The notes under the pieces: model-generated
Told to the model about the DNA's origin: nothing
Databases searched by the model: none
Seen by the model: only the letters and a program-made list of their open reading frames with translations
Shown here: positions 10,691 through 58,258 of the stretch, piece after piece
Layout of the letters: every line of letters begins with the position of its first letter
Position numbering within the stretch: the stretch's first letter is position 1
Assembly: GCA_020348925.1 (NCBI GenBank)
Contig: CP070758.1
Coordinates: 4,649,775-4,713,774, forward strand
Source: Gemmatimonadota bacterium
Lineage (GTDB): Bacteria > JBHIER01 > G020348925
Reading direction: 5' to 3'
Length of the DNA stretch: 64,000 nucleotides
Translations under genes and position numbers: made by a program

Positions 10691-12737
10691 CATCGCCGTT
10701 CACATCCCCCCTGTCTCCCCCCCGGCAACCGGATACTCCCCCGCCACAGATACGAACATCATCCACGAACCACCCGTCATCGTTCACGGAGCCGTCGGTC
10801 AGCAGCCGAAAACGGATTCTGACATCGTCCGCCAGGCCGCAATATTCCCTCAAGGAGAAGAACTCATGAATCCATTCACGGCGGTACCCGTGAAAGTCCC
10901 TCGACAACACCTCCCACTCAAAGCCGCCGTCGGTCGAAATCTCCACGAAGGCCGAATCGTTGTCCGGTTCAAAGTAGGCGTAATGCCAGAAATCGACGGC
11001 TGCCGACCCGTACGAGGTCAGATCAATCCCCCGGACCATGGCTGCCCAGGTATCTCCTCCGTTGGTATAATACCCGGAGGGACTGTCTGTCAGAGACAAA
11101 GAGACTGAATGATAGCGGGAACCGGAGGTGCCCCAGCTGCTCCCTTCACCCCCGGGGTTCCACTGGTAGATTCTACCCTCAAAATGATCATGAAAGAGCG
11201 TCTCGGCCTGGCACAACTCGAGGCTGAACGTGGTATCATCGGAGAGGTAAAATGATTCCACGTGGGCCACATAATTGTCAGCTGTAATAATCACTCTGTA
11301 GGTGCCCTCCGACAAGGTTACATCAAAATCACCTGTGGAGAAATTCGAACAGACCGTATCCACTGTCGGACCCTCGAAGAACAGGGACGCTCCCACCGGC
11401 TCCCCTGTTTGAAAGTCGGTGAGGGACCCTGCGCAATTCCATCTCGGCAAAGGCGTCAGTTCGACGTCCACCACAGTGGGACTGCTCGGATTGACCACCA
11501 CATCCGAGAATCGTTTCCCTCTGTAACCGGGATGCGTCACCTCCAGCGTATAGACACCGGGCACAAGAATTCTGCGGTACCGCCCGTACATGCGATCACA
11601 GAGACGCGGAGATACGATACCACCACTTGCTTCCAGCACCCTCACTTCAGCTTCCAGCGGTTCACCACTGATCCCGTCCGTCACGCGGCCCGTGATTCCC
11701 CCGGCCATAACCCTGTCCAAAAGGTAGTACGCGCCCACCATGTTTCGGGCGCATATACCGTCGACCATTTCGCCGGGCGGCTGAATGGTGCTCCCGACCT
11801 CGATAAGAATGGGTATCGTCCCCACTTTGACGTAAAACCAATCCCGGGCGAAGGGGGCCCGCAGAGAACTGCACCAGGGAGAATATGAGAACCTCCCGTC
11901 GTCCGTCGTGATCAACTGCGCCACTTCCTCCGCCGTATACTGGATAACGGGGAAATCCGGGGGACGCTTCTCCTCCCAGCACCAGGGATAGTAGATCACC
12001 TCTTTTGTCCCTGTTCTGGCGCTGTGATACAGAAGGGCAAACACAAATTTCTGTTCCAGGGCGAGATCACGCAGGGCCCGGTTTTCGGACTCGGAAAAAG
12101 GGGCAGGTCCCCGATAGTTATCACTGGCCCAGCTCGTGTCGCCGCGCTCCCAATTGAAATCGTAGTTTCTGTTCGGATCAACCCCATCGATATCCCCCCC
12201 TATCTCAGGTATGAAATCGAAAACACCGTTTCCATTGTTGTCCCGCTTCGTCTTCCGGAACGTCACATCAAGGCCATCCGTCACCACCTTATGCCCCTCA
12301 GGATTGAGCAGTGGGACAAACCATATTTCTATATTGTTGATCCACCAGGTGACTTGAGAATTTGCTCCGTATCGATCGACCAACTCACCGATCATATCCA
12401 GACATATCTCCAGACCGAGGGCTTCCTCGGCATGATGCACGCCATTATACAGAACAGCCGGCTCATCCTCCTCCACATCGACGTTGTCGGAAATTTTGAC
12501 CGCCCAAACGATCATACTGTCCTGGGTTGACACCCCGATGCTGTCCACTCGCATAATATCCGAGTGGACGTCAGCCATGGAATCCAGCTCAGCCACCATC
12601 TCTTCGTAGGTGTGATATCGAGCATCAAGTTGAGCCTCTATATGTGTTGCGGTCAAAGACAACAGGGTGAAGACAACCGCCAGTGGACGCATCTTCAACA
12701 TTCCCATCATGGGCATTTCCCTTCCTACTCTTTTCAT
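10691..12737 (-). CDS. Secreted M14 zinc carboxypeptidase with carboxypeptidase-regulatory-like domains, a jelly-roll domain and a C-terminal dockerin truncated by the gap
   Basis: Signal peptide; YHTYEE, HHAEE (HxxE Zn ligands), NPEG, DPNRNY, PFSESE and YHS motifs. Ends RGDVNGD at the gap. Confidence 0.9.
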
Positions 12738-12805
12738 GCTCAGGTCCTCACGGAACACCTCAACTATGTGCGGGACGCACTGACTGCCCCTTCAGAAAGA
12801 TAGTA

Positions 12806-15757
12806 TCACGGGGCACACGTGCCAACACCCAAGATGACGTTCACGATTCCGAGAACGTCCAAAACGTCAATATCAGCATCGCCGTTACAATTGGCCAGCC
12901 ACAGGGCATCGCCTTCCAATGCTTGAATCCCCAAAATATGGTTCACCGTTGCCAGGACGTCCAAGACGTCGACACCCCCGTCCCCGTTGACGTCGCCTCT
13001 CTCCCGAGAACCGAGACCGCTCAGTCGCTGGGCGTAAATATCGTGGGTATCCGCCTTCCCTTTACTGCGCATATCCTCCCATACAATGAAAGCGCCCCCT
13101 TGACCGTCCCCAACAATCTTTGGGAGCGTCTGTTTTTGAGCATACAAGCACACACACGTTCCATTATGTTCCCATTGGACGTTGCCTGATTCATCCATCT
13201 TTTGAGCAAAGATATCCAACATGGACTCACTCGATCGATAATCCTCCCAGGCCACAAGAGCTCCGTCATCGATTCCGCCCAAAAGAACCGGGGACGATTG
13301 ATCACCCTCAGCGGAGCATACATTGATGCCGTCCTCCGCCCACATTGGATCCCCGGTGCTGCTCAACCTCTGGCAGTAAATATCGTTCCCTCTCTCTATG
13401 TCGCGAAAATCATGCCAGGCGATGAAACAGTAAGAATCTTCACCAACAGCGACAGAGGGTGAAGATTGGTCGTTCTCGGCTCGACATACCGGAAGTCCGT
13501 TGAGAGAATCCTCTCCGCTCACTCTCCACAGTTTCATGCCACTGTTATTCACATTTTGGGCGTAAATATCCTTGGCCCCATGTCGCAGATCCTCCCAGAC
13601 ACAAATCGCCCCTCCGCCTCCGTCGCTGACCAGCACCGGCTCGAGTTGGTTGCCGGGTGACACACACAGCGCCAATCCCCCCTCCGGCCACTCAGAAGGG
13701 ACGGTTCCCCCCCCATCAAGCCTCTGGATATACAGGTTCTTATCGTCCCACGATCCCCCTTGCCAGAGAATGATGCCACCCCCCTCACCATCCTCCACAA
13801 TGCCGTAGGCGTAATCATCATCCTCGCTTTGAGTGATCAACACGCTCTCAAGCCCCCACGCCACATCCCCCTGAGCATTCACTTTCTGGACATATACATC
13901 GGAATCCCACCCCCCCCGAAAATCGCTCCACGCAATGAGTGCTCCACTGTTTCCGTCCGATGTGATGGAGGGATCATTTTGATCGCTTTCCGTCGGGCTG
14001 ATCCGGACCGCATTCGGCCACTGAGGAATACCATCCCCATTGAGCCGCTGCGCGTATATCTGCATAATCCCATCTCTCCGATCCTCCCAGGCGATAAGCG
14101 AACCCCCACTTCCATCGCTGACGACAACAGGTGCGGTCTGGCTGCCATCTCCTGTCGTGTCGACGCCAATCCCATTGTCGCCCCAAGAAACGAGGCCCTC
14201 ACGATCGACCTTCTGGGCAAAGACATAGGTTCCCAGGGATCCTCGCCGACCATCCTCCCAGACGATGATGGCTCCATCGGTGTCACTCATCACGTTCAGG
14301 TGGGAAGCATTGCCGCTAATACCGGCAATGACGACGAAGCCCGTTGTCTCCCATTGGACCGCCCCGGTGGGATCGAGCCGCTGGGCGTAAATTTCGACAC
14401 TGCCAGTGCGCTGATCACCCCAGAGAGCAAACACGCCCCCGGCGGCATCGTGTCGCAAGAGCGGGGAAAATTGGGAACCTGCAGCTTCGCAGATCGGCTC
14501 GCCGTCAACTGACCACTGCACGAGCCCATCGCCGTTCAGACGCTGGACATAAATATCTCCCAAAGGACTGCCTTCACTCCGTTGATCCACCCACACAAGG
14601 CACACCTCCCCAACATCCACCCGTGTCAGCCTGACTTCAATCTGATCGCCAGCGGCTGTACAGACCGCGACACCATCACTCCCCCACAGCGTCATCCCTG
14701 TTGTATTGACCCGCTGGGCATAAATATCCCAGTCGTAGGGATTATTTCGATGGTCCTTCCAAGTACAGATTGCGCCGTCGGAGCCGTCGTTGACCAATCT
14801 CGGCTCCTCCTGATTCCCGTCGGCACCACAGAGAATGGCTCCGCCTGGAGTCCACTGCACCTGGCCGGATGCAGTGACTCGTTGAGCATAGATATCTGTG
14901 TAACTCCCATTTCGCCGATCCCTCCAGACAACGAAAACCCCATCGTTGCCGTCACCCCATAATTTTACCTGATCCTGATCTCCGGCTGATCCGCACACGA
15001 GCAAGCCGCCATTCTCAAACTGGGCCAGACCATTGTTTGTCACTCGCTGAACATATATATCGTAATCCGTTCCCTTGCGTTTGTCCTTCCACGTAATGAA
15101 AGCCCCACCGAACCCGTCCGCACCTATGCTCGTACCGCTCTGCTCGGCCGGCTGCGTACACACGGCCATTCCGTTTGAAGGCCAACCCGAAGCGATGCTC
15201 CCCTCCGAGGTCACCCGTATGGCATAGATATCGCCATCGACGGCATTTCTGGCATCTTTCCAGGTCACAATGGCACCACCATATCCGTCGGAAGTGATAT
15301 TGACCGGTGAATAGGTGCTGATATTCTCATTCAAGATCACTCCTTCAGACGGCCAGAGCCTATTTCCCTCCGAATCAAGTCTTTGACAGTATACTCGACA
15401 CTTTGGATCGGCCACGACATCCACCCAGGCAATAACGGCACCGCCGGCACCATCGGCAATGATGACAGGATCCTCCTGACGACCCTCGGCTTCAATGACG
15501 TGAACGCCCTCGGCAGTCCACAGCGCGTTACCGTCGACATCATATTTTTGAGCATAGATATCGCGCGTTCCTGTGCGGCAATCCGACCAGGTCACATACA
15601 TATAGCCAGCGGAATCACCGTCCGCACTACGGTACCATTCAATATGTTTCCCCTGTCGCAGTTGCACACCATCCTGATCCCACAGAATCTGAGCCCCTGG
15701 GGCCCTGAAGGACATAACCATCACAAAAATGATAAAACCAAAAAATCTTTTCCCCAT
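12806..15757 (-). CDS. Secreted repeat protein (16 repeats of ~55-60 aa with WxDxR-DIYAQR, probable beta-propeller) with a C-terminal dockerin
   Basis: Signal peptide after a GGAGG RBS. Repeats of W.D.R...DIYAQR....G...W...G. C-terminal GDVNGDGGVDVLD...NCNGDADIDVLD. Confidence 0.85.
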   Translation of the reverse strand: MGKRFFGFIIFVMVMSFRAPGAQILWDQDGVQLRQGKHIEWYRSADGDSAGYMYVTWSDCRTGTRDIYAQKYDVDGNALWTAEGVHVIEAEGRQEDPVIIADGAGGAVIAWVDVVADPKCRVYCQRLDSEGNRLWPSEGVILNENISTYSPVNITSDGYGGAIVTWKDARNAVDGDIYAIRVTSEGSIASGWPSNGMAVCTQPAEQSGTSIGADGFGGAFITWKDKRKGTDYDIYVQRVTNNGLAQFENGGLLVCGSAGDQDQVKLWGDGNDGVFVVWRDRRNGSYTDIYAQRVTASGQVQWTPGGAILCGADGNQEEPRLVNDGSDGAICTWKDHRNNPYDWDIYAQRVNTTGMTLWGSDGVAVCTAAGDQIEVRLTRVDVGEVCLVWVDQRSEGSPLGDIYVQRLNGDGLVQWSVDGEPICEAAGSQFSPLLRHDAAGGVFALWGDQRTGSVEIYAQRLDPTGAVQWETTGFVVIAGISGNASHLNVMSDTDGAIIVWEDGRRGSLGTYVFAQKVDREGLVSWGDNGIGVDTTGDGSQTAPVVVSDGSGGSLIAWEDRRDGIMQIYAQRLNGDGIPQWPNAVRISPTESDQNDPSITSDGNSGALIAWSDFRGGWDSDVYVQKVNAQGDVAWGLESVLITQSEDDDYAYGIVEDGEGGGIILWQGGSWDDKNLYIQRLDGGGTVPSEWPEGGLALCVSPGNQLEPVLVSDGGGGAICVWEDLRHGAKDIYAQNVNNSGMKLWRVSGEDSLNGLPVCRAENDQSSPSVAVGEDSYCFIAWHDFRDIERGNDIYCQRLSSTGDPMWAEDGINVCSAEGDQSSPVLLGGIDDGALVAWEDYRSSESMLDIFAQKMDESGNVQWEHNGTCVCLYAQKQTLPKIVGDGQGGAFIVWEDMRSKGKADTHDIYAQRLSGLGSRERGDVNGDGGVDVLDVLATVNHILGIQALEGDALWLANCNGDADIDVLDVLGIVNVILGVGTCAP

Positions 15758-15856: not shown

Positions 15857-18800
15857 CTAATAAGAACACGCGCCACTCCCTAAGATCACATTAACAATCC
15901 CCACCACATCCAATATGTTCACCTGGCCGTCCCCCGTATAATCCGACGACCACAACTGGTATTCCGTCGGCCCTTCCCCACTCGCCAATATGATATGAAT
16001 CACCCAAACAACGTCCAAAATGTTCACCCTTCCAACCTCATTCACATCCCCAATCTGAGACTCAACCCCAAACCAATCCAATATTCGCCCCAACATCTCA
16101 GCGCGCATATGAGACACATTCGCCACATCATAAAACTCGATCAGCGACTCAAAGCCAACTGCAAAATATATAACCCTGTATCCACCCCTGTAACGAAGAG
16201 CCGCAGTTTCGCCGGAACCGTAATAGATGAGTATTGAGCTGGCGCCGTTGAGAGGTTCGATCACGTCCGGGCTGTCCTGATTGTCCGCGCCTAAGTCACC
16301 TGGACAGAGCGATAGCATATCGAGCTCACCGGTGATCGGATCCCCAGGCACGCTGTACAGCCATATGTCTTCACTCCGGTCGGCCAAAAACCTTACATGC
16401 AAATAGTTCCTCAGAAAGGGTGACTCGCGAAGATCAGCCGCAATGTTTTGGCCTGTCATGAACAAACCCCCACCGTTGTCGAGAAAAGTTTTGAGCCATT
16501 CTTGATCGGATGGAGTGAGTGTAGAGTCACATTCGTTTCCCGTAAACCAGATCACTGCCTCATAATTATAAATCAAAGACGTATCCAACATACCATCGCT
16601 CAACCTATCGTACAGATCACACCCGATACCCTCCATATCACAGGCCGCTTCGAAATATATTTCCAGAGAGTCCCCGCCATCGTCGTCAACGAGCAGAAAC
16701 GCCGACTGTCCCACGAGGACTTCGAACCGGAGAGTTGTACCGTAATAATCACCGTTTGAGAAGATGGAAAGGTGAAAGGATACATAATGATACGGCGTTT
16801 CATTGCTCAGACGAAACACAAAAGGGTCGATCCAGTTTGTGCAGGAAGAGTCTGCCTCCACTTCAGGAAAATCCGCAGAATCACTGAGAAGTGAAAGATA
16901 CTCATCTTCTGTCCTTAGCACTCCCCGTACATCGGTCGCTTGCCCACCACCAACATTCCGGAGCTGAATGCGCAGTTCCCACACCTCTCCTGCTTCGGGT
17001 CTGCCATCCCCATCACCCTCGACCTCGTTGAGAGTGCAAGTCTCATAGGTTATTATGGGTGCTACAACCTCAATGTTAAAAGCCGTCTTCGAACAGAACG
17101 ATCCCCAAATTGCTGTCACAACCTCAAAAGGTATTTCGTATCCGTGCTCACAGTCTGGAGCAACAGCAACAACAAAGGGGCCTTCGCTCACGGCCGTTTC
17201 TCTGGGAGGTAGGTCAGGAAAGGTTTGGATACTATCCTGGACACAAGCACTCGTATCGCTGCTTCTCAAAATCGCTGTCACGTCCTGAGCTGTACTCCCG
17301 CCAAGATTGAATAATCGGATGCTCAGCTCGATCACTTCGCCTATGTCGACGAGGCTATCCCCATCTCCGGTACTCAATCCAACAGAATCGTCGTCAAGAA
17401 TCACTTCGCACAGATTGGTATGAGGATTCGAGGGGAATTCTGTGTTGGTTGTGAACTTTATCGCCGAGTGATCTGATAACTCTTGGGCCCCAGGAACGTA
17501 TTGTCCGGCATAGGTGTACTCCAGACCGCCCTTCTTGTCCGGAGACTCAATCCCCACAGTGGCAAAATTCCCCGCATAATCACTGTTGCTCACCGCCCGA
17601 TACTGAAACACGATCTCTCCATCCCCCGTTGGTGTCGGATAATACTCGGGATCATAGAGTACGACCTGAAATGTCTCTTCTGCATCATCATAATCGTTGT
17701 AAATCCTGCTCCACTCCACAACAAATCTATGTTCCTGCTCATCATTGAAATATACGACACAACCATTCCCCATGTAGAGATCGTCCCAGAATGGGGCCAC
17801 GAGGCACGGCGGGTTGAGAACCGCCGGAATGGACCAATTCCTGAAATTTGTCATCCACGTTGCCCCAAAAGAAAGCCATCCATTCGAACAGACGGATACT
17901 TCATCGTAAGTATTCCCATAATAACGAAAGGCGAACGGCAAGGGCAATACTTCGGTATCCCCCTGAGGATAATTCTCCCCGGTATAATACCCAGGCTCAA
18001 TGTCATCGATGAGATTTAAAACAGCCCCAGCCCCCCCGTGGAGTGGATCGATTTCAATCCACTCATAATTGGGTCTGTCATAATAGCGCCAGTCGAAACT
18101 ATCGTAAGCGAAATATCCGTAGGAATCGGGGCCGGAAGGATCGGATGGGGTGGCAAGCCCAACTGTTACCGGTAACATTACTACGTCCCTCATCTCAGAA
18201 TTGCTCTCCACATACAGGGTGAAGTGCACTTGATGTCCGGGGAACATACTCTCATGGGCTGAGATGATGAAAGGATTTTCCGAATTATCACCCTGGCTTT
18301 CCATCATGATGGTTCCAAAGTCCGCTCTCGAATCGATGAGAACGATATTTGGATCGGAAGTCCTGAGTGTTGCTCGAACGTTTTTACCGACCTTTTTCCC
18401 CTCATTGGTTATCGTTACTACAAGGCTACCCGTTTCACCGGGATCGAGGCGGTTGGGAAGCAGTGTCTGGCTTGAATCTTCTATATGAAAAGAGTGCAGG
18501 GAGAAGTCAGGAGCCTCCACCGAGATATCCAAAAAGTCTTCCCAAAGAGTTCCACTCCCATCGACAATTTCTATGGTGCACGTTACTACATGTCCATCCG
18601 GGCAATCCGGGGTAATCGAAATGACGTACTCTTCTTGACCCGCAACATCACTTCCAGGTGGAATATCCCCAAAATTCGCTATGCTTTGATGCACAGCCCC
18701 GTATGAATCATCAACCGCTATCTCAGCAGAGACGGAGAAAGCCGTCCGGCTTACACCCGCATTCCTCAAAGAAAGTATCAATTCCATCGTTTCTCCCGGA

Positions 18801-20923
18801 TTGACTTTTCCATCGCCATCGCCCGAGCTTTCACCCAATGAATCGTCATCGATATGATGGTTTGAGAGGGAGACACAGACCGGGACTTCCTGACCGAGTA
18901 AAATTGTCTGGTAGGGTTTGAAATTGTGTTTCGTAACAGTCACCAAAACGGAATCATTCTCTCCCACGGAGACAGGCAGGGTGATTCTCCCATCCGGTTC
19001 TGTATATCCTCCGGAGAGGATCCGTCCACCTGCGGTTAGACAGACATACGCACCATCGACGGGGAGATTGTCAGAATTTTCAACTGTCATAAACAACTGG
19101 TTGGTCCCAACACCAATCACTGAGGGATGATCGACAAAAAGATTGTTGGGGATATCTGTCCACATCACCAGTCCCGGATCGCCGATCAAAGTGTATATAT
19201 AAAAATAACACTCTACGGAATTCCAGGTGTTTCCCGGACCCCTGTTGTGCGGATATTGCATATACAGCTCCATTTTCGCTCGGGCAAAAGCCTGACCCAC
19301 TGTAAACAGGGAATCGTCAAAGACACCGGCATAAAATCCAGCATCCAGGACATTATTATAATTTACAAAGGTAAACATCGATGTGGGACCGATGATAGCA
19401 ACGGCTCCTCTCGGAAAAGAAACCGTTCCGGCACGCAACCACGCTTCTGCCGGACAATCCTCATTAAAATCAGCAGCATTGCAGACCATATCTGTAACCA
19501 CGGGCAGCATGAACCCATTATGCAGACCATAGATGTTGTCAAGGTCAGCAGGAGTTTGATATGCAGACGTCCATCCACCCCAGTCCATCCAACCACGATA
19601 GTTGACAAAGGCGACTCCCGAGTTCACGACAGCCGAAATATATCCCACATCACATTCATACCCTGGAAAAGTAAAGGACGTATCCACCTGTGTAAAACCA
19701 TTATCCAGGAGTTTCTCTCTCACCCATAGTTTCAGTGTTCTCGTTGAAGCATTTCCTTCATAATTGCAGATCATGAGAGCTCTCTTGTACCAGTTGGTCC
19801 GCCCCATGTATGGATTCCTCTCATACGAGACAATCTTATTCGCAACCGTTCGCATCTCGTTGACGGAAGACACTGACAATCGCCCCACAAAGACATCCGG
19901 GAAATAGTCCTCACCCTCCAGCATACAATAAGGATGGTCAGCAGCCACCCATTCCAATCCATCATCATAATAAAAGGTTGGCATTTCATCGACATCACCG
20001 ACGAGAATGACATATTCAAGGGGAACGGAAGCAGACTCGTAATAATCCTGGATATAAATTCGTATCAGATTGTTACTCGGGTTCGAACCAATCCGCGACA
20101 GCTTCACCATTTCTGTATGATGCCCCTTCTGTCGCTTCCACTCCACCAGTGGTTCCAACGCTTCATAATAGGCATCAGGTGTAATAATGAGATACCCTCC
20201 CCTTACAACCTCCTGAGATGACGGCAGGGCAGTATAGTTTACTATCGAACTTCTGTAGAGCTTTTCAAAAGCTTCCGGTCTTCCAAGGCTCCGGCGTTTT
20301 GGTGTGGCTGAATTTTCGGACCGCTTATATGTCAGCTTCACAGTAAGCCTTCGACACACTTTCACCTCTTCACGAACGGGATTGTACTGCACAGGATGAA
20401 GAATAAGAGGAACAAGACAAAGGTCCCGAACCATCACCGCAGACCCAACCTCAGCAGCAGGTTCAGGATAGAACGCATCCTGGGCATAGAACTCTCGGCT
20501 CATGAGAAAAGGGCGCTCGTCTCTTTTCTCGGTCCGTTCCTCCTGATGCGGCCACATCCGTATGTCGCTCAGGATCGAAGAGTCACGAAGGTCTACCTCA
20601 ACATCCACGGAGACACCCGGCGGTACGGCCACCAACCTGGCCAGAACAGGCAGCTCCGGCCGACCGGCCTCGGTTCTCCACCCGGCCCGGGATAGGCGTA
20701 CCTTCTGGTACTTCTCGCCTCCTTCAAAGATATCCTCAATGACCGGCTCGGGAATCTCAAGAGCTATTTCGGTCCCACTGTTGTCCGAAGCCAACACCCG
20801 AAACTCCGGAACATCTCGCTCCAATAAAAATTCGGCCCTAGAACCCGCACTGAGAAAAAAGACCGTCCCTATGCACACAAGAATAAAATGTCTTCTTCGA
20901 AAAATCTCCTTGACTGTGATCAT
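15857..20923 (-). CDS. Gingipain-like C25 family protein, paralog 1 (propeptide, C25 domain, Ig-like modules, dockerin)
   Basis: Propeptide GRPELPV/PVQYNP; YLIITPD, WKRQKG, YVILVGD, DVFVGRLS, NKIVSYE, LIGDPG. C-terminal GDVNE...NILD duplicated Ca-binding loops. Confidence 0.9.
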   Translation of the reverse strand: MITVKEIFRRRHFILVCIGTVFFLSAGSRAEFLLERDVPEFRVLASDNSGTEIALEIPEPVIEDIFEGGEKYQKVRLSRAGWRTEAGRPELPVLARLVAVPPGVSVDVEVDLRDSSILSDIRMWPHQEERTEKRDERPFLMSREFYAQDAFYPEPAAEVGSAVMVRDLCLVPLILHPVQYNPVREEVKVCRRLTVKLTYKRSENSATPKRRSLGRPEAFEKLYRSSIVNYTALPSSQEVVRGGYLIITPDAYYEALEPLVEWKRQKGHHTEMVKLSRIGSNPSNNLIRIYIQDYYESASVPLEYVILVGDVDEMPTFYYDDGLEWVAADHPYCMLEGEDYFPDVFVGRLSVSSVNEMRTVANKIVSYERNPYMGRTNWYKRALMICNYEGNASTRTLKLWVREKLLDNGFTQVDTSFTFPGYECDVGYISAVVNSGVAFVNYRGWMDWGGWTSAYQTPADLDNIYGLHNGFMLPVVTDMVCNAADFNEDCPAEAWLRAGTVSFPRGAVAIIGPTSMFTFVNYNNVLDAGFYAGVFDDSLFTVGQAFARAKMELYMQYPHNRGPGNTWNSVECYFYIYTLIGDPGLVMWTDIPNNLFVDHPSVIGVGTNQLFMTVENSDNLPVDGAYVCLTAGGRILSGGYTEPDGRITLPVSVGENDSVLVTVTKHNFKPYQTILLGQEVPVCVSLSNHHIDDDSLGESSGDGDGKVNPGETMELILSLRNAGVSRTAFSVSAEIAVDDSYGAVHQSIANFGDIPPGSDVAGQEEYVISITPDCPDGHVVTCTIEIVDGSGTLWEDFLDISVEAPDFSLHSFHIEDSSQTLLPNRLDPGETGSLVVTITNEGKKVGKNVRATLRTSDPNIVLIDSRADFGTIMMESQGDNSENPFIISAHESMFPGHQVHFTLYVESNSEMRDVVMLPVTVGLATPSDPSGPDSYGYFAYDSFDWRYYDRPNYEWIEIDPLHGGAGAVLNLIDDIEPGYYTGENYPQGDTEVLPLPFAFRYYGNTYDEVSVCSNGWLSFGATWMTNFRNWSIPAVLNPPCLVAPFWDDLYMGNGCVVYFNDEQEHRFVVEWSRIYNDYDDAEETFQVVLYDPEYYPTPTGDGEIVFQYRAVSNSDYAGNFATVGIESPDKKGGLEYTYAGQYVPGAQELSDHSAIKFTTNTEFPSNPHTNLCEVILDDDSVGLSTGDGDSLVDIGEVIELSIRLFNLGGSTAQDVTAILRSSDTSACVQDSIQTFPDLPPRETAVSEGPFVVAVAPDCEHGYEIPFEVVTAIWGSFCSKTAFNIEVVAPIITYETCTLNEVEGDGDGRPEAGEVWELRIQLRNVGGGQATDVRGVLRTEDEYLSLLSDSADFPEVEADSSCTNWIDPFVFRLSNETPYHYVSFHLSIFSNGDYYGTTLRFEVLVGQSAFLLVDDDGGDSLEIYFEAACDMEGIGCDLYDRLSDGMLDTSLIYNYEAVIWFTGNECDSTLTPSDQEWLKTFLDNGGGLFMTGQNIAADLRESPFLRNYLHVRFLADRSEDIWLYSVPGDPITGELDMLSLCPGDLGADNQDSPDVIEPLNGASSILIYYGSGETAALRYRGGYRVIYFAVGFESLIEFYDVANVSHMRAEMLGRILDWFGVESQIGDVNEVGRVNILDVVWVIHIILASGEGPTEYQLWSSDYTGDGQVNILDVVGIVNVILGSGACSY

Positions 20924-23900
20924 CTCCTAATCCCCAGTATGACATTCACGATGCCCACCACATCCAGTATGTTCACCTGGCCGTCCCCGGTACAATCCGA
21001 GGCCCACACCTGATACTCCGTCGGATCACCCTCAATAGCCAGTATAATGTTGATCATCCTCACAATGTCCAAAATATTTACAGCCCCATCCTCATTCACA
21101 TCGCCAATCCGAGGCTCAACTTCAAACCAATCCAATATGCGCCCCAACATTTCAGACCGCATCGCATACGCATTGGCGACATCATAAAATTCTATCAGAG
21201 ACTCAAATCCAACAGCATAGTACACAAGCCCGTACCCATTTCGATACCGAAGCGCCGCCGGGTTCTCAGTGCCGTAATATGTGAGAAGAGGATTTGCACC
21301 CCCGAGAGGCTCGATCTCGTCCGGACTGTCCTGATTGTCCGCACCGTAATTACCGGTGGCAAGAGAGAGCAGCCCCAGATCGCCTGTGATCGGATTCCCC
21401 GCTACCCCCTCCACCCATATCACCCCGCTGCTGTCTGCCACAAGCTCGGCATGCATGTACTCCAACAAAAAGGATGAACCCGAAAGATCCGAAGCAATGT
21501 TCTGACCGCTCACAAACAGGTTTCCCCCCTCATCAAGATACGCCTCCAAACACTCCTGATCGAAAACTGTCAAGGTCGACTCCCGCTCACTCCCCGTAAA
21601 CCATATTATCGCCCAGTAATCTCGAAGCATTGATACCCCAGGCGCACCCTGAACCGACCTCTCATACACCTCATAACTCCTTCCCTGACGGTTCAACGCA
21701 TCCAGATAATACACCTCACACCCATCCCCCCCATCATCATCGACAAGCAGAATGTCCGCCCGCTCTATCACGATCTCAAAGCTGAGAACGGTAGAGTAAT
21801 GATTGCTATTCGAGGAGACAGACAAGTCGAAGGACCTGTTATGATACGGAGTCTCATCGTCGATACGAAAAAGAAACGGATCGTCCGAATTTTCACATGC
21901 TGCCTGCGGCGGGATGTTTAAAAAAGAGACAGTATCATTGAGAAGAGTCACATACGCATCATCTATCGTTAAGACAGCACTGACCCCTGTTGCTTGATCA
22001 CCACCAATATTTTGAAGATTGACATAGAACTCCCACGTTTCTCCTGATTCAATTCTGTCATCCTCATCGCCTTCGATAACATTCAGAGTGAAGGTTTCGT
22101 GGACGATGACCGGGGCAGCAACTTCAATGTCAAAATTCGTCAGTGAGCAGAACGATCCCCCCGTCCGTGTTTCCAATACAAAATCGATGGTGTGTCCGTC
22201 CTCACAAACAGTAGCAATTTCTATCACGAAAGGCCCTTCGCTTCGGGCCGTATCCCCGGGTGTGATATTGGGAAAGGACTTTAGGCTGTCTTGAACCGAT
22301 ACCTTGAGATCCGCACTCCGCAACAGAGCCGTAATTCCCTCGGCATTTTCCTGGCCGTGATTGATCACCCTGAGAGCCAGTTCAATCCTCTCCCCTGCGT
22401 CAACAATGCCATCTCCATCCCCGCTACTCCTCCCATAAGCATCGTCGTCCAAGTGGCAGCCATAATATCCGAGAGACGGACTTTCCGGTCGGTGTCTCCC
22501 CGTCTTAAACTTTATGGCCAGGCCATTGTGCAATTCCATCGCACCGGGGGCATATTGCCCGGCATAGGTATATCCCAAACCGCTCTGCTTGTCAGGCGAC
22601 GCAATCCCAACCGTGGCAAAATTCCACGCATAATCACTATTGTTCACTGTATGGTATTGAAAAAGAATCTCGCCATCCCCGGTATCACTCCGGTAATATG
22701 CCGGATCGAACAGAAAAACTTGAAAGGTTTCAAGAGCATCGTCATAATCGTTATGCACCCCGCTCCACTCCACACAAAACCTGTGTTTCGGTGCATCATA
22801 ATAATAAGTCACACTCCCATCCCCCACGTACAGATCATCCCAAAAGGGAGCGATAAGGCATGGTGGGTTGAGAACTGCCGGAATACCCCAGTTCCGAAAA
22901 TTGGTCATCCAGGTTGATCCCATGGAAAGCCATCCGTTCGAACATACGGAGATGGTGTCGTAACTCTGGCCGTAATACCGAAACGTGAAGGGAAGAGGTA
23001 ACACCTCGGTGTCTCCCTGAGGATGATCATAGAAGGTTGAATCCAGGCCCGGCTCATCGACAAAATTGAAAAGGGTACCTGAACCACCGAGGGAAGGATC
23101 GATTTCAAACCACTCGTAGAGGGGTTTTTCAAAATAGGACCAGTCGTTGGAATCAAAAGCGAAATAGCCGTAAGCATCAGGACCCACCGGATCCGATGAG
23201 GAAATATTTCCAATTGAGATCGATAGGACAATCTCGTCCCTCATTCCAACATTACTTTCCAATACGAGCACGAATTGTGCCCGGTGTCCGGAAAAGGTCA
23301 TCAGATCGGCTGAAATCAGGAAAGGATCATCGGAATTGGTCGCCTCAGTTCCTAAAGGCATATTTCCCCAGAAAGCTGTTGAATCGACGAGCGTGATATT
23401 TGAATCGATCGTTCTGAGCGTTGCCTCGACATTCTCTCCAGGTTTTCGTCCTTCATTGGCGATTGTCACCACAAGATGCGCCGTTTCACCGGGATCAAGT
23501 CGACCGTTCGGTAACACCTGATGTGCATCTTCAATCACTACTTCTTCAAGAGAAAACGCCGGGGCCGCCACACCTATTCTGAGAAAATCATTCCACTCGT
23601 TCCCATTACTATCGGTTGCTTCTAAAGATAAAACGAGCTCATGACCGTCCGGACAATCATGCCTGACTGAGAATACATAGTCACCCTGACCCCAAACAGA
23701 ATCTCCGGGTGAGATTGCACCGAACTGTACAAATTCCTCAAGCACAGTAGCGTATCTATCGTCAATTGCGAATGTTGCAGAGACTGAAAAAGCAGTTTCC
23801 CCTATACCCGAATTTTTCAACGAAAGACTCAATTCAACGGTCTCTCCGGGATTGAGCCTCCCATCACCATCCCCCGAACTGCCATCTGACGAATCGTCAT

Positions 23901-25998
23901 CGATCCGATAATCCGCAATTGAAACCACAACCTCCGCCCCCTCACCGCCAAGGACCGTTTGATACGGCTTGAAATTATGTTTCGTGACGGTTATCCTGAC
24001 AGAATCGCCGATCTCCACGGACTGAGGAAGCGCGATCCGACCATCACCCCCGGTAAATCCGCCGGAGAGTATCTCTCCGCCCCTCGTCAAACTAACGTAC
24101 GCATCGCTCACAGGACGATTCATCGAATCCTTGACTTTCAGGTCCAAAACATTCACCCCAGATTCGATAACCGACGGATGTTCAACTGTTAAGAGCCGGG
24201 GAATGTCGGTCCACATGTCAAGCCCGGGATCACCGATCAAGGTATACATATAAAAATAACACTCCACCGAGTTCCAGGCGTGACCTGGTCCTCGGTTCAA
24301 CGGGTACTGGTTGTACAGCTCCGTCTTGGCCCGGGCTAAAGCCTGGCCCACAGTGAAGAGGGAGTCGTCGAAAACCCCGGAATAAAATCCACCATCCAGG
24401 ACATTATTAAAGTATACTTTCGTATTGCTCGCCGTAGGCCCGACAATGGCTATTCCCCCCTTAGGATTCAGGGGCGTTCCGGCCCGCAGCCACCCCTCAG
24501 CAACACAGTCGAACAGATAAAAAGATGCCTGAGTACACGTCATATCAGTAATGACAGGCAGCATGAATCCGTTCTGCAACCTGTAGATGTTATAAAGATC
24601 AACATAGGAAGCCCACCCCCCCCACATTGCAATGCCGCGGTAGTTCACAAAGGAAACCCCTGAATTCAACACGGTTGAGATAAACCCCACATCACATTCG
24701 GACACTGAATACGTAAACGATGTATCAACCTGAACAAAGCCATTATCGAAGAGCTTGTCCCTCACCCACAGTTTCGTTGTTCTCGACGAAGCGTTCCCCT
24801 CAAAGTTACACACCATGAGCGCTCTCTTGTACCAATCCGTTTGTCCCATGTATGGCTCCCTCTCGTAGGAGACAATCTTGTTGACGACCGTCCGCACTTC
24901 TTTCAGTGATGAGACCGAAAGCCGCCCCACGAAGACATCCGGAAAATAATCGTCTCCCTCGAGCAGACTGTAGGGATGATCCGTTGCATCCCATGGCCAG
25001 GAAGGAAACAGCATTCCCTCCATCTCGTCATAATACAAAAAGGTCGGCATGTCATCGTCACCCACCAGAATAACATACTCAAGCGGAACGGAAGAACGTG
25101 TATAATAGTCCTGGATATAACTGCGAATATGCTCGTTCGTGGGCAATGACCCTGTCGCTTGAAAGGATCCTATCTGTGACAGCATAACGACCTCGGTGTG
25201 ATAACCCTTCTGCCGTTTCCACTCCGCCAGAGGCTGCAATGCTTCAAAATAGTAATCAGGAGTTATGATGAGATATCCACCCCGCTCAATTTCGTCTGCT
25301 GAAGACGAATCGTAATTCAATATTGAACTTCGAAACAGTTTTTCAAAAGCTTCGGATGTGCCAGGACTGTCATGATGTCTCCTCGAGCCACCATTTCCCA
25401 GAGGTCTCAATACCACAGTAATATTCCGATACACCCTCAACTCCTCTCGAAGAGGATTGTACTGGACAGGATGTACGATAAGCGGCACGACTTCAAGATC
25501 ACGAATCCTTATCGGAGACCCGACCTCTACCACTGACTCCGGATAAAAAGAATCCCGGGTGTATATCTCCTCATCCAATGTGAAAGTATGTTTCCCCTTC
25601 CTTTCAAGCTCCTCCCCTCGACTCGGCCAAACTCGTATGTCACTTGCGGTCGAATAATCACCAGACCTAACCTCCACATCCACGGCTACGCCTCGCGGGA
25701 CAGCCACCAACCTCGCCAGCACAGGCAATTCCGGACGACCGGCTTCAGTCCTCCAGCCAGTCCGGGATATGCGGACCTTCTGATAGATGTGTCCTTCCCC
25801 AACCACATCCTCAATGACCGGCTCAGGAATCTCAACCGAGATCTCAATCCCACCATTATCCGCGGCCAATACCCGAAACTCCGGAACATCGCTCTCCAAT
25901 AAAAATCCGGCCCGAGAACCCGTACTGGGGATGAGGGCGAAAACTGCGCCCCACAGCCATACGCTCACCCCTCGGCAGACTCGCTTCAATTCGAACAT
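20920..25998 (-). CDS. Gingipain-like C25 family protein, paralog 2 with dockerin
   Basis: Same motifs as paralog 1. Start moved to the ATG at 25998 (MFELKR, GGGAG RBS, signal peptide follows). Confidence 0.9.
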   Translation of the reverse strand: MFELKRVCRGVSVWLWGAVFALIPSTGSRAGFLLESDVPEFRVLAADNGGIEISVEIPEPVIEDVVGEGHIYQKVRISRTGWRTEAGRPELPVLARLVAVPRGVAVDVEVRSGDYSTASDIRVWPSRGEELERKGKHTFTLDEEIYTRDSFYPESVVEVGSPIRIRDLEVVPLIVHPVQYNPLREELRVYRNITVVLRPLGNGGSRRHHDSPGTSEAFEKLFRSSILNYDSSSADEIERGGYLIITPDYYFEALQPLAEWKRQKGYHTEVVMLSQIGSFQATGSLPTNEHIRSYIQDYYTRSSVPLEYVILVGDDDMPTFLYYDEMEGMLFPSWPWDATDHPYSLLEGDDYFPDVFVGRLSVSSLKEVRTVVNKIVSYEREPYMGQTDWYKRALMVCNFEGNASSRTTKLWVRDKLFDNGFVQVDTSFTYSVSECDVGFISTVLNSGVSFVNYRGIAMWGGWASYVDLYNIYRLQNGFMLPVITDMTCTQASFYLFDCVAEGWLRAGTPLNPKGGIAIVGPTASNTKVYFNNVLDGGFYSGVFDDSLFTVGQALARAKTELYNQYPLNRGPGHAWNSVECYFYMYTLIGDPGLDMWTDIPRLLTVEHPSVIESGVNVLDLKVKDSMNRPVSDAYVSLTRGGEILSGGFTGGDGRIALPQSVEIGDSVRITVTKHNFKPYQTVLGGEGAEVVVSIADYRIDDDSSDGSSGDGDGRLNPGETVELSLSLKNSGIGETAFSVSATFAIDDRYATVLEEFVQFGAISPGDSVWGQGDYVFSVRHDCPDGHELVLSLEATDSNGNEWNDFLRIGVAAPAFSLEEVVIEDAHQVLPNGRLDPGETAHLVVTIANEGRKPGENVEATLRTIDSNITLVDSTAFWGNMPLGTEATNSDDPFLISADLMTFSGHRAQFVLVLESNVGMRDEIVLSISIGNISSSDPVGPDAYGYFAFDSNDWSYFEKPLYEWFEIDPSLGGSGTLFNFVDEPGLDSTFYDHPQGDTEVLPLPFTFRYYGQSYDTISVCSNGWLSMGSTWMTNFRNWGIPAVLNPPCLIAPFWDDLYVGDGSVTYYYDAPKHRFCVEWSGVHNDYDDALETFQVFLFDPAYYRSDTGDGEILFQYHTVNNSDYAWNFATVGIASPDKQSGLGYTYAGQYAPGAMELHNGLAIKFKTGRHRPESPSLGYYGCHLDDDAYGRSSGDGDGIVDAGERIELALRVINHGQENAEGITALLRSADLKVSVQDSLKSFPNITPGDTARSEGPFVIEIATVCEDGHTIDFVLETRTGGSFCSLTNFDIEVAAPVIVHETFTLNVIEGDEDDRIESGETWEFYVNLQNIGGDQATGVSAVLTIDDAYVTLLNDTVSFLNIPPQAACENSDDPFLFRIDDETPYHNRSFDLSVSSNSNHYSTVLSFEIVIERADILLVDDDGGDGCEVYYLDALNRQGRSYEVYERSVQGAPGVSMLRDYWAIIWFTGSERESTLTVFDQECLEAYLDEGGNLFVSGQNIASDLSGSSFLLEYMHAELVADSSGVIWVEGVAGNPITGDLGLLSLATGNYGADNQDSPDEIEPLGGANPLLTYYGTENPAALRYRNGYGLVYYAVGFESLIEFYDVANAYAMRSEMLGRILDWFEVEPRIGDVNEDGAVNILDIVRMINIILAIEGDPTEYQVWASDCTGDGQVNILDVVGIVNVILGIRR

Positions 25999-33349: not shown

Positions 33350-33449
33350 NNNNNNNNNNNNNNNNNNNNNNNNNNNNNNNNNNNNNNNNNNNNNNNNNNN
33401 NNNNNNNNNNNNNNNNNNNNNNNNNNNNNNNNNNNNNNNNNNNNNNNNN
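33350..33449. other. Assembly gap (100 N)
   Basis: Run of N; flanking genes are truncated and on opposite strands. Confidence 1.
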
Positions 33450-43834: not shown

Positions 43835-45490
43835 TTAACGTAACAGAACCAGTTTCATTGTCTCGCTAAACGTATTCCCCGCATGCATGACACAGAAATA
43901 TATCCCGCTTGCATGTTGACTTGCATCAAAACAGATAACATAGGAATCGGCTTGCTGAAACTCGCTCACCAAAGTTTGTATTTCTCTCCCAAGCAGATCA
44001 TATACTTTCAGTGTCACGAAACTCGAACGGGGAATTGAATATGAGATGAGGGTTGTGTTGTTGAACGGATTTGGATAATTGTGATGCAGACGAAATTGAT
44101 GAACAACGGATTGGTCTGTTTCAACAGAAGATTGATCTATTTCATTCGTATCTTCCCATGCAAAATGTAGCAGGTTGCATGCATATTGCGTCTCCTCGGT
44201 GGTCACCAGTTCCTGTCCGACAACATGTATTGTATCGGTCGCCTCCGAAACGAGCAAACACATCCCATGCATCTCGACGGCATTGAAAAAACCGACGGGC
44301 AACGGCTGACGGTAAATTGTCGTAAAATCCCAGGCTCCGTTTTTCAAAATGCCGTATCGTATATTGCCCACATTCAGACGTTGCGTGCCCGGCCAATGGG
44401 TTGAAGCAATATCCGAAAAAATGATATGAGGTGTGTTATTCTTATCAAAAACGAGATGAGACAAACCGCCCGTATATTTCCTGCCGTCACCTCCATAATA
44501 CCCGTCATCGCGTTCGGCAATTATTTCGGAGCCCCAACCATGATCTCCCAGTCTCTTGAGCAAAAACAACTTGCAATATACAGCGGAGTGGGTTAATACG
44601 CGATTGACGTACATGCAGGAGATGTAGGGCGTTCCGCTATTATCCAGGCATAATGAAGGGTACCAGCCTGCATCATCTTTGGCTCCGTAATCATTATTCA
44701 AAGCGATCTCCATTTCCCAATTCCCTGTTTTATTTGTTGCATACCACAATCGGGAGGGATCGTCCGTCGCATGGATCTGCTCTGCAAAGATCACATGGAC
44801 ATAACCCTCATCATCCACCTTAATATCCTGCCGAATGGACGATTTAATGTACATATCATATGTATAGGCCATATCATAGTGATGCACCAAATCCTTTTCC
44901 CAATTTCCCGTCCCATTGGTCAGGTGATACAAATTGGAGCCTATCCAGGCGTCCATGAAATCTTCAGAGTCAACATCGGAGCGTGTCTTCAAAATCAATA
45001 AATGGAATGAATAATCAGGACCTGTATCGGCGGAGAGCTCGTATATGAATTTTCCTCCTTCGTTGTAGAAGTGGATGAGTGTTTCGTTGTGCCAGTGATT
45101 TGTACTATTCTTGTAATAGTGGTCGATGACTTGATCGTGTTCATCCGACCGTGCGACAAAAATATGAGGATCGGATTCTGCGTCAAACAATAAGACGGAT
45201 TTCTCAAGCCGTGTCCCTGAAGTTACTGTATCAATATTCTCAGATCCGTCAGGATGGATTGTCTTGTAGAGAAGTGTGCCTTCATCATCGCTTTTTTCAA
45301 AACGTTGAAAATACGAGATCCCGACAAACCCGTCGTTATTTATCTGCGCCCAGCTCCTGCTGTGACTGTCGTTCAGGCCATAATATATTGTGATCTGCGA
45401 ACCGTTCGTTTTCTGATCTTGAATTCCAGCGGCTACAAACTGGCTGTCGATCATCAATAGGCATGTTATCATTTGAAGACAATTTCTCAT
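43835..45490 (-). CDS. Secreted probable beta-propeller protein with a T9SS type A C-terminal domain
   Basis: Repeats such as SLCLDNSGTPYIS and LVFDKNNTPHII. C-terminal NYPNPFN...LKVYDLLGREI...SGIYF...KLVLLR. Confidence 0.8.
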   Translation of the reverse strand: MRNCLQMITCLLMIDSQFVAAGIQDQKTNGSQITIYYGLNDSHSRSWAQINNDGFVGISYFQRFEKSDDEGTLLYKTIHPDGSENIDTVTSGTRLEKSVLLFDAESDPHIFVARSDEHDQVIDHYYKNSTNHWHNETLIHFYNEGGKFIYELSADTGPDYSFHLLILKTRSDVDSEDFMDAWIGSNLYHLTNGTGNWEKDLVHHYDMAYTYDMYIKSSIRQDIKVDDEGYVHVIFAEQIHATDDPSRLWYATNKTGNWEMEIALNNDYGAKDDAGWYPSLCLDNSGTPYISCMYVNRVLTHSAVYCKLFLLKRLGDHGWGSEIIAERDDGYYGGDGRKYTGGLSHLVFDKNNTPHIIFSDIASTHWPGTQRLNVGNIRYGILKNGAWDFTTIYRQPLPVGFFNAVEMHGMCLLVSEATDTIHVVGQELVTTEETQYACNLLHFAWEDTNEIDQSSVETDQSVVHQFRLHHNYPNPFNNTTLISYSIPRSSFVTLKVYDLLGREIQTLVSEFQQADSYVICFDASQHASGIYFCVMHAGNTFSETMKLVLLR

Positions 45491-45709
45491 TGTTCTTTCC
45501 CTTTTTAAAGATAACAATACTTTCTAATAATCGACCCTCCTTAAGAGCTCCAGGGATTCACATCTTGAAGAGTCTTGAAAAGGGTTGAACCTTTAATTTT
45601 AGATTTTCTCAACACCTTCACAAGATTTTCAATGAGTGTCAACCTTTTAAAAACCAACACGTAAATTTAGGAATCAGCCCTCTAAAACTCTGAAACTCCC
45701 ACTTGTCAT

Positions 45710-51032: not shown

Positions 51033-51045
51033 ATGGAGGGCGAAA

Positions 51046-54742: not shown

Positions 54743-54774
54743 AAGATAGTAGGATGTATTGACAATGTCAATAC
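54743..54774 (-). promoter_or_regulatory. sigma70 promoter with an overlapping palindromic operator (TA autoregulation)
   Basis: TTGACA-17 nt-TATCTT; perfect palindrome GTATTGACA-a-TGTCAATAC at 54756-54774. Confidence 0.75.
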
Positions 54775-54810
54775 GTTTTTAAAAGAGATGCTTTCCATTG
54801 CACGTCTCAT

Positions 54811-55012: not shown

Positions 55013-55069
55013 GTTTGCAAACCAACATTCTAAATAAGTAAATAAAAATTTGACCCCGAGCGCATGTCC

Positions 55070-58000: not shown

Positions 58001-58258
58001 CCAGTACTCATCGGTGGTATGCCACATGGCTCCAATATCACTCATGTTCTTACATGTAAACCCACCAGCTCCATCCTCGAAATCCCAGAAGTAAAGTGTA
58101 TCCAGTTCCTGCGTAACAATTGGAACTGATGGTATTTTTGCCTGCGTGTTGATTGTTTCGGTGCTGTAATTAGGCTTCTTCTCAGCCAGGGCCACGACGG
58201 TCACACCAACAGCCACACACAGAGAAACAATAGCAACACAGATATGCTTATTTCTCAT
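55070..58258 (-). CDS. Secreted multidomain protein: jelly-roll adhesin-like domains, Ig-like domain, dockerin, cohesin-like domain and T9SS type A CTD
   Basis: Signal peptide; dockerin GDPTGDGEINILD...DCNSDGTLNVLD; cohesin-like VEVNISL...MAGAQFDLKYN...GELVKVSFKV; CTD QNYPNPFNP...SGVYLYRL...RQMVLLK. Confidence 0.85.
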   Translation of the reverse strand: MRNKHICVAIVSLCVAVGVTVVALAEKKPNYSTETINTQAKIPSVPIVTQELDTLYFWDFEDGAGGFTCKNMSDIGAMWHTTDEYWTYDGSNAWWCGTPRDAANNFSDVWGYGSAWSQTLDMEQAVNLSGTSNPVLSFDARWSCEGSDFNTYADCFVDGILQGDWDGLVVYVSTDGGATYPPENFILPTDLTHVCVCGTLYSHQVATGYFVPGGIKGLNGNSEGWRHMEYPLDNYKTGNVVLRMHFCSDECLSTFDEYSCGQDTSFHGFFIDNISVDDGGSNIFFDNGDDEIHLVPSVTSRNNIWHYVDGAADAPSPTHAWVADADDEWNLESVWLESPWFEIPEGWFPELRYWFKCDMPDFDGDHDTDLEDYYEVHISEDGMAWTALYHHWPRMTEGFSDITGYDQTCHFETWWSYVNDDLMYNGRMTLWNYSGRTVKLRWLTHSDTNDDCGNGTGLWLDNIEIVGRESAPYDMGVDRIDYSTPNAVGSQTRVTLTIRNFGQLKAYGYFFYQILDEENNEVIPLTPGVADSFETGEIRKIYFDWTPAAAGLYRVLAFLFAGEDYYGPNDSLYSAWVNVFPANGGALFDHHFLTGNASGFGDGNGVAVHLFPPHWLGTYRITEGAVRYNSGEGPYTVNIFTGPFSDTEDTIDYPGDGVELLAAVSTHTDESTLDDWPIPDVPSGFGLWGQDWYGVDLSGEENLKCMEGDVFLFIQHGEGHSGLIPCYEDPDPPSGCFTYDSESFRFIRSDDDYALRLGIAWPGNCGCMCQGRRGDPTGDGEINILDALAAVNHILGMVELEGDGFCCSDCNSDGTLNVLDVLGIVNVILGFDQCRPVGAKAVLGTSQATVWAETVSSHHSVEVNISLSSEISMAGAQFDLKYNATKVVPVQVTLSARCEGMEMFYHTRSGELRVVLYSPDGLAIDAYEGELVKVSFKVIDTGDPELTFGEVLLAHSCTEAIFPEVRSIVFKGMVSVEYGLVQNYPNPFNPATCIEYSVAGNVRATLKVYNILGQELVTLVDEVKVPGAYTLVWDATDVASGVYLYRLTAGDYTATRQMVLLK

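Follow-up and report, generated by a model that had tools for sequence, protein, structure and literature searches.

Dockerin-ended C25-family proteins and a cohesin protein with a type IX secretion domain: a candidate cell-surface assembly network in an uncultured Gemmatimonadota bacterium

Does a bacterium that exports proteins through a secretion system of type IX (T9SS) hold other exoproteins at its surface by dockerin-cohesin contacts of the cellulosomal kind? The question is raised by a stretch of 64,000 nucleotides (the window) in contig CP070758.1 of assembly GCA_020348925.1, a metagenome-assembled genome (MAG), where an array of genes for gingipain-like C25-family proteins and a separate gene for a protein with a cohesin-like domain and a T9SS C-terminal domain (CTD) lie between positions 10691 and 58258. 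A sequence-only reading of this DNA had seen one dockerin-like module in eight proteins (four gingipain-like paralogs, an M14 carboxypeptidase, a propeller protein, a FISUMP-domain protein and the cohesin protein) and had interpreted them as a peptide-harvesting complex whose subunits exchanged their CTD for a dockerin. Our analysis confirms what was seen and lends the interpretation partial support. We hypothesize that exoproteins without a CTD are tethered through their dockerins to T9SS-anchored cohesin proteins, inside a general surface network, and we regard this reading as evenly poised between right and wrong.

Two runs of N, each exactly 100 long (10591-10690 and 33350-33449), divide the window into three contigs of one MAG record: contig A (1-10590), contig B (10691-33349), which holds the dockerin array, and contig C (33450-64000), where housekeeping genes lie together with the genes for the FISUMP and cohesin proteins. 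The second run is the scaffold gap that had been noticed between the array and the cohesin gene. Contig B carries six co-directional genes separated by small overlaps or gaps, in the order C25d, C25c, C25b, C25a, propeller and M14, which look like an operon. A type-I-like dockerin closes five of the six proteins, none of which has a T9SS CTD; the M14 protein is cut after six dockerin residues.

The hallmark of a type I dockerin is a duplicated segment in which a DxNxDGxxxxxD calcium loop is followed by a helix. Complete type-I-like dockerins are present in seven window proteins, and both calcium loops are readable in all seven, with single substitutions in some. Pfam Dockerin_1 (PF00404, gathering score 22.9) matches seven of the eight named proteins, six of them above the cut-off: C25a (28.1), C25b (40.7), C25c (29.1), C25d (32.0), the FISUMP protein (29.3 bits) and the protein that also bears the cohesin, hereafter the Coh-Doc protein (25.1). 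The propeller dockerin scores 18.6, under the cut-off, and is found at E 1.8e-20 by a profile hidden Markov model (HMM) derived from the alignment A1, whose 41 rows are mostly foreign and include only one from the window. This HMM recovers all seven window dockerins at E 2e-13 to 1.4e-30, and with the A1 profile the dockerin matches dockerins in the PDB at E 1e-8. An HMM of the seven dockerins themselves recovers those seven at E 1e-30 to 5e-35 and detects no eighth in the six-frame open reading frames (ORFs) of at least 40 aa in the window, the next match having E 2.8. What had been counted as the eighth is the M14 stub, in which just the residues GDVNGD (10692-10709) remain before the contig end, preceded by a Cys/Gly-rich junction that resembles the junction before the other dockerins. 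A dockerin is plausible here; neither it nor any CTD after it can be read past the contig end.

In C25a to C25d and the propeller protein, the dockerin stops 2-6 residues short of the stop codon, which leaves no room for a canonical T9SS signal at the C-terminus. No T9SS type A CTD (TIGR04183 or PF18962) was found by Pfam or TIGR profiles in these five proteins or in the FISUMP protein. The five contig B proteins with intact N-termini, and the FISUMP protein, begin with a hydrophobic stretch that reads as a Sec-type signal. The dockerins fall into two subtypes. One is that of the C25 paralogs, whose dockerins are 64-84% identical to each other; the other, a general subtype, is common to the propeller protein, the Coh-Doc protein and cargo proteins with a dockerin and a CTD (Doc-CTD). 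The propeller and Coh-Doc dockerins are closer, at 58-74% identity, to those that Doc-CTD cargo proteins carry in other parts of the record. The two subtypes hint at two cohesin specificities.

We also observed that most of the dockerins have a Cys right after the first Asp of the second calcium loop (DC[NT]GDG) and another Cys 2-4 residues past the last helix; the pair was seen among the dockerins at 12809-12997, 15860-16051, 25989-26180, 30698-30889, 34309-34524 and 55751-55939. The exceptions are C25a, with Tyr at the first position, and C25b, without the terminal Cys. The pair may be a lineage-specific disulfide staple.

The Coh-Doc protein is a T9SS cargo encoded on the reverse strand of contig C (55070..58258, 1062 aa; residue numbers here follow the 1078-residue reading 55070-58306). 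Its C-terminal part consists, in this order, of a dockerin (residues 790-852; 55751-55939), a cohesin (residues ~865-990; 55337-55714) and a type A CTD (residues 1000-1078; 55073-55309). Pfam Cohesin (PF00963) passes marginally, at 25.2 against a cut-off of 24.1, over residues 875-958 and profile positions 14-105 of 139. The CTD scores 37.1 against 23 with TIGR04183 over residues 1000-1075 of 1078, and 26.8 against 27 with the Pfam CTD profile. These scores bear out the cohesin-like domain and CTD that had been read together on one dockerin protein. An AlphaFold2 model of residues 785-1078, from a 41-row alignment, has a mean predicted local distance difference test score (pLDDT) of 91.1 and a predicted template-modelling score of 0.70, and comprises three dockerin helices (model residues 16-26, 35-40 and 50-61), a beta-sandwich with pLDDT 90-98 and a CTD sandwich. 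The best Foldseek matches of the cohesin domain in the PDB are cohesins (E 2e-10 to 1e-6, probability 1.00; best 2w1n, E 2e-10), among them the type I cohesins 1ohz_A, 2ccl_A and 6kgd_A with target-normalised template-modelling (TM) scores of 0.63-0.72 at 13-18% identity. Searched by itself against 1.84 billion proteins, the cohesin matches 132 representative clusters with E<=1e-3, and in 11 cases E is 1e-10 or lower. Of the 15 best matches in the representative library, 11 have Pfam Cohesin above the cut-off, two are repeat-protein noise and two are Doc-CTD proteins with a cohesin missed by Pfam. Since the Pfam match, the modelled fold and the cohesin-bearing relatives agree, we regard the cohesin fold and homology of this domain as established.

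The N-terminal ~780 aa of the Coh-Doc protein are beta-rich, with MAM-like and CARDB-like regions, and belong to a paralogous family of Doc-CTD cargo, from which the window protein differs by the cohesin inserted between dockerin and CTD. An AlphaFold2 model of the N-terminal 736 aa (7-row alignment, pLDDT 49.6) is of too low confidence to use, and a search of the ESM Atlas gave unnamed clusters only, with no named relative of this region.

The dockerin-cohesin-CTD (Doc-Coh-CTD) region has 2536 database matches, and we scored the architectures of the 120 listed with our own HMMs; the named matches come from MAGs of Zixibacteria, Latescibacteria and Glassbacteria, candidate phyla of the FCB (Fibrobacteres-Chlorobi-Bacteroidetes) group. 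Among the 120, the commonest architecture is Doc-CTD, with no cohesin (43), followed by Doc-Coh-CTD (23), CTD only (22), Coh-Doc-Coh-CTD (14), Coh-CTD (9), Coh-Coh-CTD (3) and CTD-Doc (2), with four singletons. The Doc-Coh-CTD tail occurs in 38 of the 120, 14 of these having the extra upstream cohesin, and it stands behind very different N-terminal domains. A cohesin shares its tail with a dockerin and/or a CTD in 51 of the listed relatives. Within the window's record, too, there are T9SS cargo proteins with a cohesin immediately upstream of the CTD, the Coh-Doc protein of contig C being one.

From these observations, we propose that T9SS would export the cohesin-CTD proteins and fix them to the outer membrane, that CTD-less exoproteins would be caught by their dockerins, in a calcium-dependent manner, on the membrane-proximal cohesins of these carriers, and that the same contacts would cross-link CTD-anchored dockerin proteins, giving a general cell-surface assembly network and not a dedicated peptidase machine. 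We favour a cross-linking network because dockerins are also found on many proteins that a CTD anchors. The binding between cohesin and dockerin, the surface location and the passage of the CTD-less proteins across the outer membrane are all steps that we infer. A complex prediction of the window cohesin (A1 residues 68-210) with the C25c dockerin (A2 residues 1503-1573) and two calcium ions scored 0.18 and 0.23, where the mark is 0.32, and speaks neither for nor against binding.

Several observations weigh against this proposal. CTD-less proteins are not known to have a route of export across the outer membrane, and no genes of the T9SS machinery (SprA, PorU, PorV, PorKLMN) lie within the window. 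The cohesin gene is isolated among unrelated genes on contig C, and its distance from the array cannot be read, as the record does not give its contigs in physical order. The Coh-Doc protein is itself not a scaffoldin, having its own N-terminal domains and its own dockerin, and a weak search among proteins of 1888-5000 aa found no giant scaffoldin with cohesins of the window type. Five cohesin modules were seen in the record, on four proteins (the window protein, P0003, P0010 with two, and P0057), against at least 22 dockerin proteins. Furthermore, 14 of the 120 listed matches belong to the record of the window itself; Dockerin_1 exceeds its cut-off in 13 of them and a CTD-type domain does so in 12, on catalytic or binding parts as diverse as S8 and C1 peptidases, alkaline phosphatase, DUF362, beta-helix, LamG/PKD and FG-GAP. 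With a CTD-type domain on 12 of the 14, the dockerin does not in general stand in for the CTD, nor is it confined to peptidases, and a role purely as an anchor for CTD-less proteins leaves the same-record proteins with both modules unexplained. The composition of contig B and the active site of the C25 proteins, which we take up below, count on the same side.

The nature of the C25 proteins is a question in its own right. C25a (15857..20923), C25b (20920..25998) and C25c (25986..30707), all on the reverse strand, share one architecture: signal peptide, C25 propeptide, C25 domain, Ig/CARDB-like repeats, a NIDO-like domain (in C25c only 20 bits, under the cut-off) and the terminal dockerin (15860-16051, 20923-21105 and 25989-26180, respectively). 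C25d (30695..33349, reverse strand; dockerin 30698-30889) comprises the last 885 aa of a fourth paralog, which the contig end truncates. Pfam finds Propeptide_C25 (E ~1e-21) and Peptidase_C25 (E ~1e-58) in three of the four paralogs, C25a to C25c; the propeptide is a latency domain in gingipains. The four gingipain-like paralogs of the sequence-only reading are thus three proteins with both domains and one C-terminal fragment, and the three have no His at the canonical catalytic position. The catalytic dyad of the gingipain RgpB is Cys244-His211, according to PMC9559808. When C25c is aligned to RgpB, Cys244 corresponds to Cys479 and His211 to Glu447; in the same column C25a has Trp and C25b has Ile, and both have the catalytic Cys. 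Among 119 aligned C25 homologues, none has His in the His211 column (the residues are W, Y, G, F, I, V, E, S or C), 118 have Cys in the Cys244 column, and Arg445 and Glu491 are invariant in all 119. Nowhere in the N-terminal 700 aa is a His column conserved to 85%.

It is quite possible, at somewhat less than an even chance, that the C25 paralogs are not peptidases at all and are gingipain-fold binding or scaffold proteins or enzymes of another chemistry, in which case the array would be no protein-processing unit; this question is independent of that of assembly. The missing His and the lack of any His column conserved to that level argue for this view, and the near-invariant Cys, the invariant Arg445 and Glu491 and the retained propeptide argue against it, suggesting a conserved active site. 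We therefore describe the window proteins as C25-fold homologues with a conserved site and at most a putative proteolytic activity, and not as canonical gingipain-type peptidases. Sequence alone does not justify the label 'active gingipain-like peptidase' and, with C25 domains that have no canonical catalytic His, the peptide-harvesting role once suggested for the complex is unproven, a further point against a protein-processing machine. We considered and rejected a PorU-like sortase identity (NF033707, 33-58 bits against a cut-off of 420). A literature search found no paper on C25 homologues without the His.

A rival that bears directly on assembly is that the dockerin-like modules are generic calcium-binding stalk or adhesion modules, with a glycan, a mineral or a substrate as ligand, or with a merely stabilizing function, and form no complex with cohesins. 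The sequence-only reading had itself allowed for a generic sorting tag on hundreds of unrelated proteins, and this is borne out in part: at least 13 further proteins of unrelated function in the same record carry the dockerin, many of them already anchored by a CTD. The prevalence of Doc-CTD without cohesin among the listed relatives and the excess of dockerins over the cohesins seen point the same way. On the other hand, cohesins are present in the same record and share tails with dockerins or CTDs in the 51 listed relatives, the cohesin fold is confidently predicted, where the alternative anticipated had been a domain lacking that fold, and the dockerins retain both calcium loops and both helices. 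We consider the generic-module explanation unlikely, while giving it real weight.

We judge it improbable that contig B, with the array, comes from an organism other than that of contig C, with the cohesin gene. Contig B does have a higher GC content (52.1%, against 48.3% and 47.7% for the other two contigs) and a lower mean tetranucleotide correlation to A and C (r 0.66-0.67, where A and C reach 0.84 with each other), 100-N spacers show the window to be concatenated, and the true continuation of contig B is on another contig of the record: residues 1-225 of C25d match the last 225 residues, at 97.8% identity, of the partial protein P0133, which lies on a different contig of the same record and not on the one next in the window. 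It is from this continuation that we conclude that the contig order is not physical. However, six of seven window proteins, from contigs A, B and C, were matched exactly, all on one 5,038,017-bp record that NCBI labels as a Gemmatimonadota MAG, which agrees with the assumption that both contigs belong to one bin. The propeller dockerin of contig B is closest to dockerins of the same record, at 69-74% identity to those of its Doc-CTD proteins and with five of its six best matches there, and large secreted repeat proteins are often unlike housekeeping genes in composition. The deviating composition of contig B is not decisive.

A bolder scheme is the least probable of the readings that we entertain. 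In it, the Doc-Coh-CTD tail would be a self-complementary connector for T9SS cargo in candidate phyla of the FCB group and would chain cargo proteins head-to-tail on the outer membrane, and CTD-less dockerin proteins such as the His-less C25 proteins would bind cohesin-CTD carriers in the periplasm and hitch-hike with them across the outer membrane, through the T9SS translocon, as folded complexes.

Returning to the proposed tethering of CTD-less proteins to cohesin-CTD anchors, we asked how the dockerin-ended C25 proteins arose. The C-terminus of 120 listed C25 homologues is a CTD in 97, a dockerin in 13 and neither in 10. A tree of the first 640 residues was built from 73 rows, comprising all dockerin-ended rows and all rows with neither module that have the N-terminus, together with 51 of the 97 CTD-ended rows; it left out 46 CTD-ended rows and P0134, which is without the N-terminus, and no root was inferred. 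In this tree, the 12 dockerin-ended C25 proteins and the partial P0133 form a single clade (Shimodaira-Hasegawa-like approximate likelihood ratio test support 100) among CTD-ended clades. Because gingipains themselves carry CTDs and the dockerin forms are one clade among CTD-ended ones, a swap of CTD for dockerin is the simplest reading of the C25 proteins. The replacement that had been proposed for all the subunits is in keeping with the C25 family in this respect; it does not extend to the further dockerin proteins listed from the record, most of which keep their CTD.

The array itself appears to extend further and to be conserved. P0133, which overlaps C25d, has the propeptide and C25 domain that C25d is without in the window, and judged by locus tag it adjoins P0128, another full-length C25-dockerin paralog; the array probably continues into this fifth paralog. 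Three paralogs, P0129, P0130 and P0132, lie on one 20,110-bp contig of another assembly, which indicates that the tandem array is conserved. We also surveyed 75 loci around C25 relatives in species-representative genomes of KSB1, TA06, WOR-3, Eisenbacteria, Cloacimonadota, Krumholzibacteria and Fibrobacteraceae (best matches 33-45% identity). Even with the limit relaxed to E<=1, the HMMs for dockerin and cohesin matched none of their 7163 ORFs, against 160 matches to the CTD HMM; this set contained no dockerin-ended C25 protein and not the source genome, and gives no context for the dockerin clade.

The remaining proteins of the array are a propeller protein and a carboxypeptidase. The propeller protein (12806..15757, reverse strand; dockerin 12809-12997, no CTD) has 16 beta-propeller repeats of ~55 aa that end in IYAQR-like motifs, the number that had been counted before, and matches the TIGR04275 repeat. 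The M14 carboxypeptidase (10691..12737, reverse strand, C-terminus cut) has two CarboxypepD_reg domains, a MAM-like domain and a Peptidase_M14 domain (Pfam, E 1e-41) that keeps the HxxE...H zinc ligands in an alignment to carboxypeptidase T; the enzyme looks intact. We rejected an apparent fusion of M14 with tuf (EF-Tu) in the ORF 10458-12758, whose reading frame crosses the 100-N spacer and is a concatenation artefact; contig A ends in the tuf fragment and otherwise carries rpoC, rpoB, L10, L1 and nusG. As had been noticed, there is no glycoside hydrolase (GH) among the dockerin proteins: no GH or carbohydrate-binding module (CBM) reaches the Pfam threshold in the window, and the sole GH match is GH43 on the propeller protein (25.2 against 32.2).

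On contig C, the FISUMP-domain protein (33682..34608, reverse strand) carries its dockerin (34309-34524) directly after the signal peptide, and both parts of its earlier description hold (Fib_succ_major 190.5 bits, TIGR02145 134 bits, and the Dockerin_1 match given above). A lipoprotein anchor was rejected for it, as there is no lipobox ahead of the only Cys in the signal peptide. A second T9SS cargo on this contig, the BNR-like protein at 43835..45517 (reverse strand), has a type A CTD (TIGR04183 35.1 against 23), no dockerin HMM match and no cohesin, and stands outside the cohesin-dockerin set. An extracytoplasmic function (ECF) sigma factor, a putative anti-sigma protein and a HEAT/TPR protein follow one another at 49762-52536, on the strand opposite to the cohesin gene and 2.5 kb away. 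The beta-lactamase/AmpH-family protein at 52684-54141 has a second copy (>=90% identity) elsewhere in the same record.

Should binding between the cohesins and these dockerins take place, a modular, T9SS-based enzyme decoration of the outer membrane would be common to many uncultured bacteria of the FCB group, which would bear on how bacteria of sediments and anoxic waters attack particulate organic matter. In addition, metagenome surveys commonly place gingipain-like C25 peptidases among the extracellular proteases; given that all 119 close C25 homologues are without the canonical His, this practice deserves testing. Both points, the surface network and the reading of C25, are for now proposals from sequence, and the general concept has already been published as a hypothesis.

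A search of the main texts in a limited library found no further relevant paper that joins dockerins or cohesins with type IX secretion or gingipains beyond those discussed here. 'Cellulosome-affiliated enzymes' are mentioned for Latescibacteria in a sentence of PMC7081726 that cites Farag et al. 2017; a dedicated search found no paper on dockerins together with cohesins in Latescibacteria.

How, then, does the window compare with known systems? With the clostridial cellulosome (1ohz, 2ccl, 6kgd) it shares a dockerin with two calcium loops and helices and a beta-sandwich cohesin, at the TM scores and the low identity given above. It differs in having no glycoside hydrolases, CBMs, S-layer homology (SLH) anchor or multi-cohesin scaffoldin, and in a diderm host with T9SS CTDs; the combination of multi-cohesin scaffoldin, dockerin-bearing GHs and CBM that makes a cellulosome does not occur in the window. 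The gingipains RgpB and Kgp of Porphyromonas gingivalis (MEROPS C25; 1cvr, 4ief, 4rbm) share the propeptide, the catalytic-domain fold (E 5e-26 to 4ief_B) and the catalytic Cys, whereas the window proteins are without His at the His211 position, have a dockerin in place of the T9SS CTD and are far longer (~1,570-1,720 aa), with NIDO-like and CARDB-like regions. The hypothetical 'planctosome' of Nemodlikiaceae (Planctomycetes), proposed by Andrei et al. 2019 (PMC6461901), is similarly a non-cellulosomal cohesin-dockerin system for peptide degradation, with an M14 carboxypeptidase and an adaptor that has both dockerin and cohesin; its anchor is a lamin-tail domain and not a T9SS CTD, and its peptidases are M12B and M14, not C25.

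The closest precedent is the cellulosome-like complex that Williams et al. 2021 (PMC8542988) proposed, from sequence only, for Ca. Stygibacter (Cloacimonadota). In that proposal, enzymes with signal peptides, including a C25 gingipain-like peptidase, have C-terminal dockerins, a cohesin protein has a T9SS-type CTD for surface attachment, and the complex is proposed to degrade polypeptides and polysaccharides. The coupling of C25 dockerins to cohesin-CTD anchors, in which the sequence-only reading had placed any novelty, was thus put forward there. The Ca. Stygibacter system has dockerin-ended GH18, GH57, S8 and C25 proteins and a non-catalytic scaffoldin of 3,755 aa with tandem cohesins, CBMs and a CTD (PMC8542988). 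Here, by contrast, no GH lies in the window, the weak search described above found no giant scaffoldin and the lineage is a different one (Gemmatimonadota according to NCBI), and the cohesins seen are single ones (two in P0010), embedded in Doc-Coh-CTD tails that follow N-terminal domains particular to each protein. What sets the present case apart from the published hypothesis is this single-cohesin Doc-Coh-CTD tail on proteins with N-terminal domains of their own, the lineage in which it occurs, and the array of C25 proteins without the canonical His.

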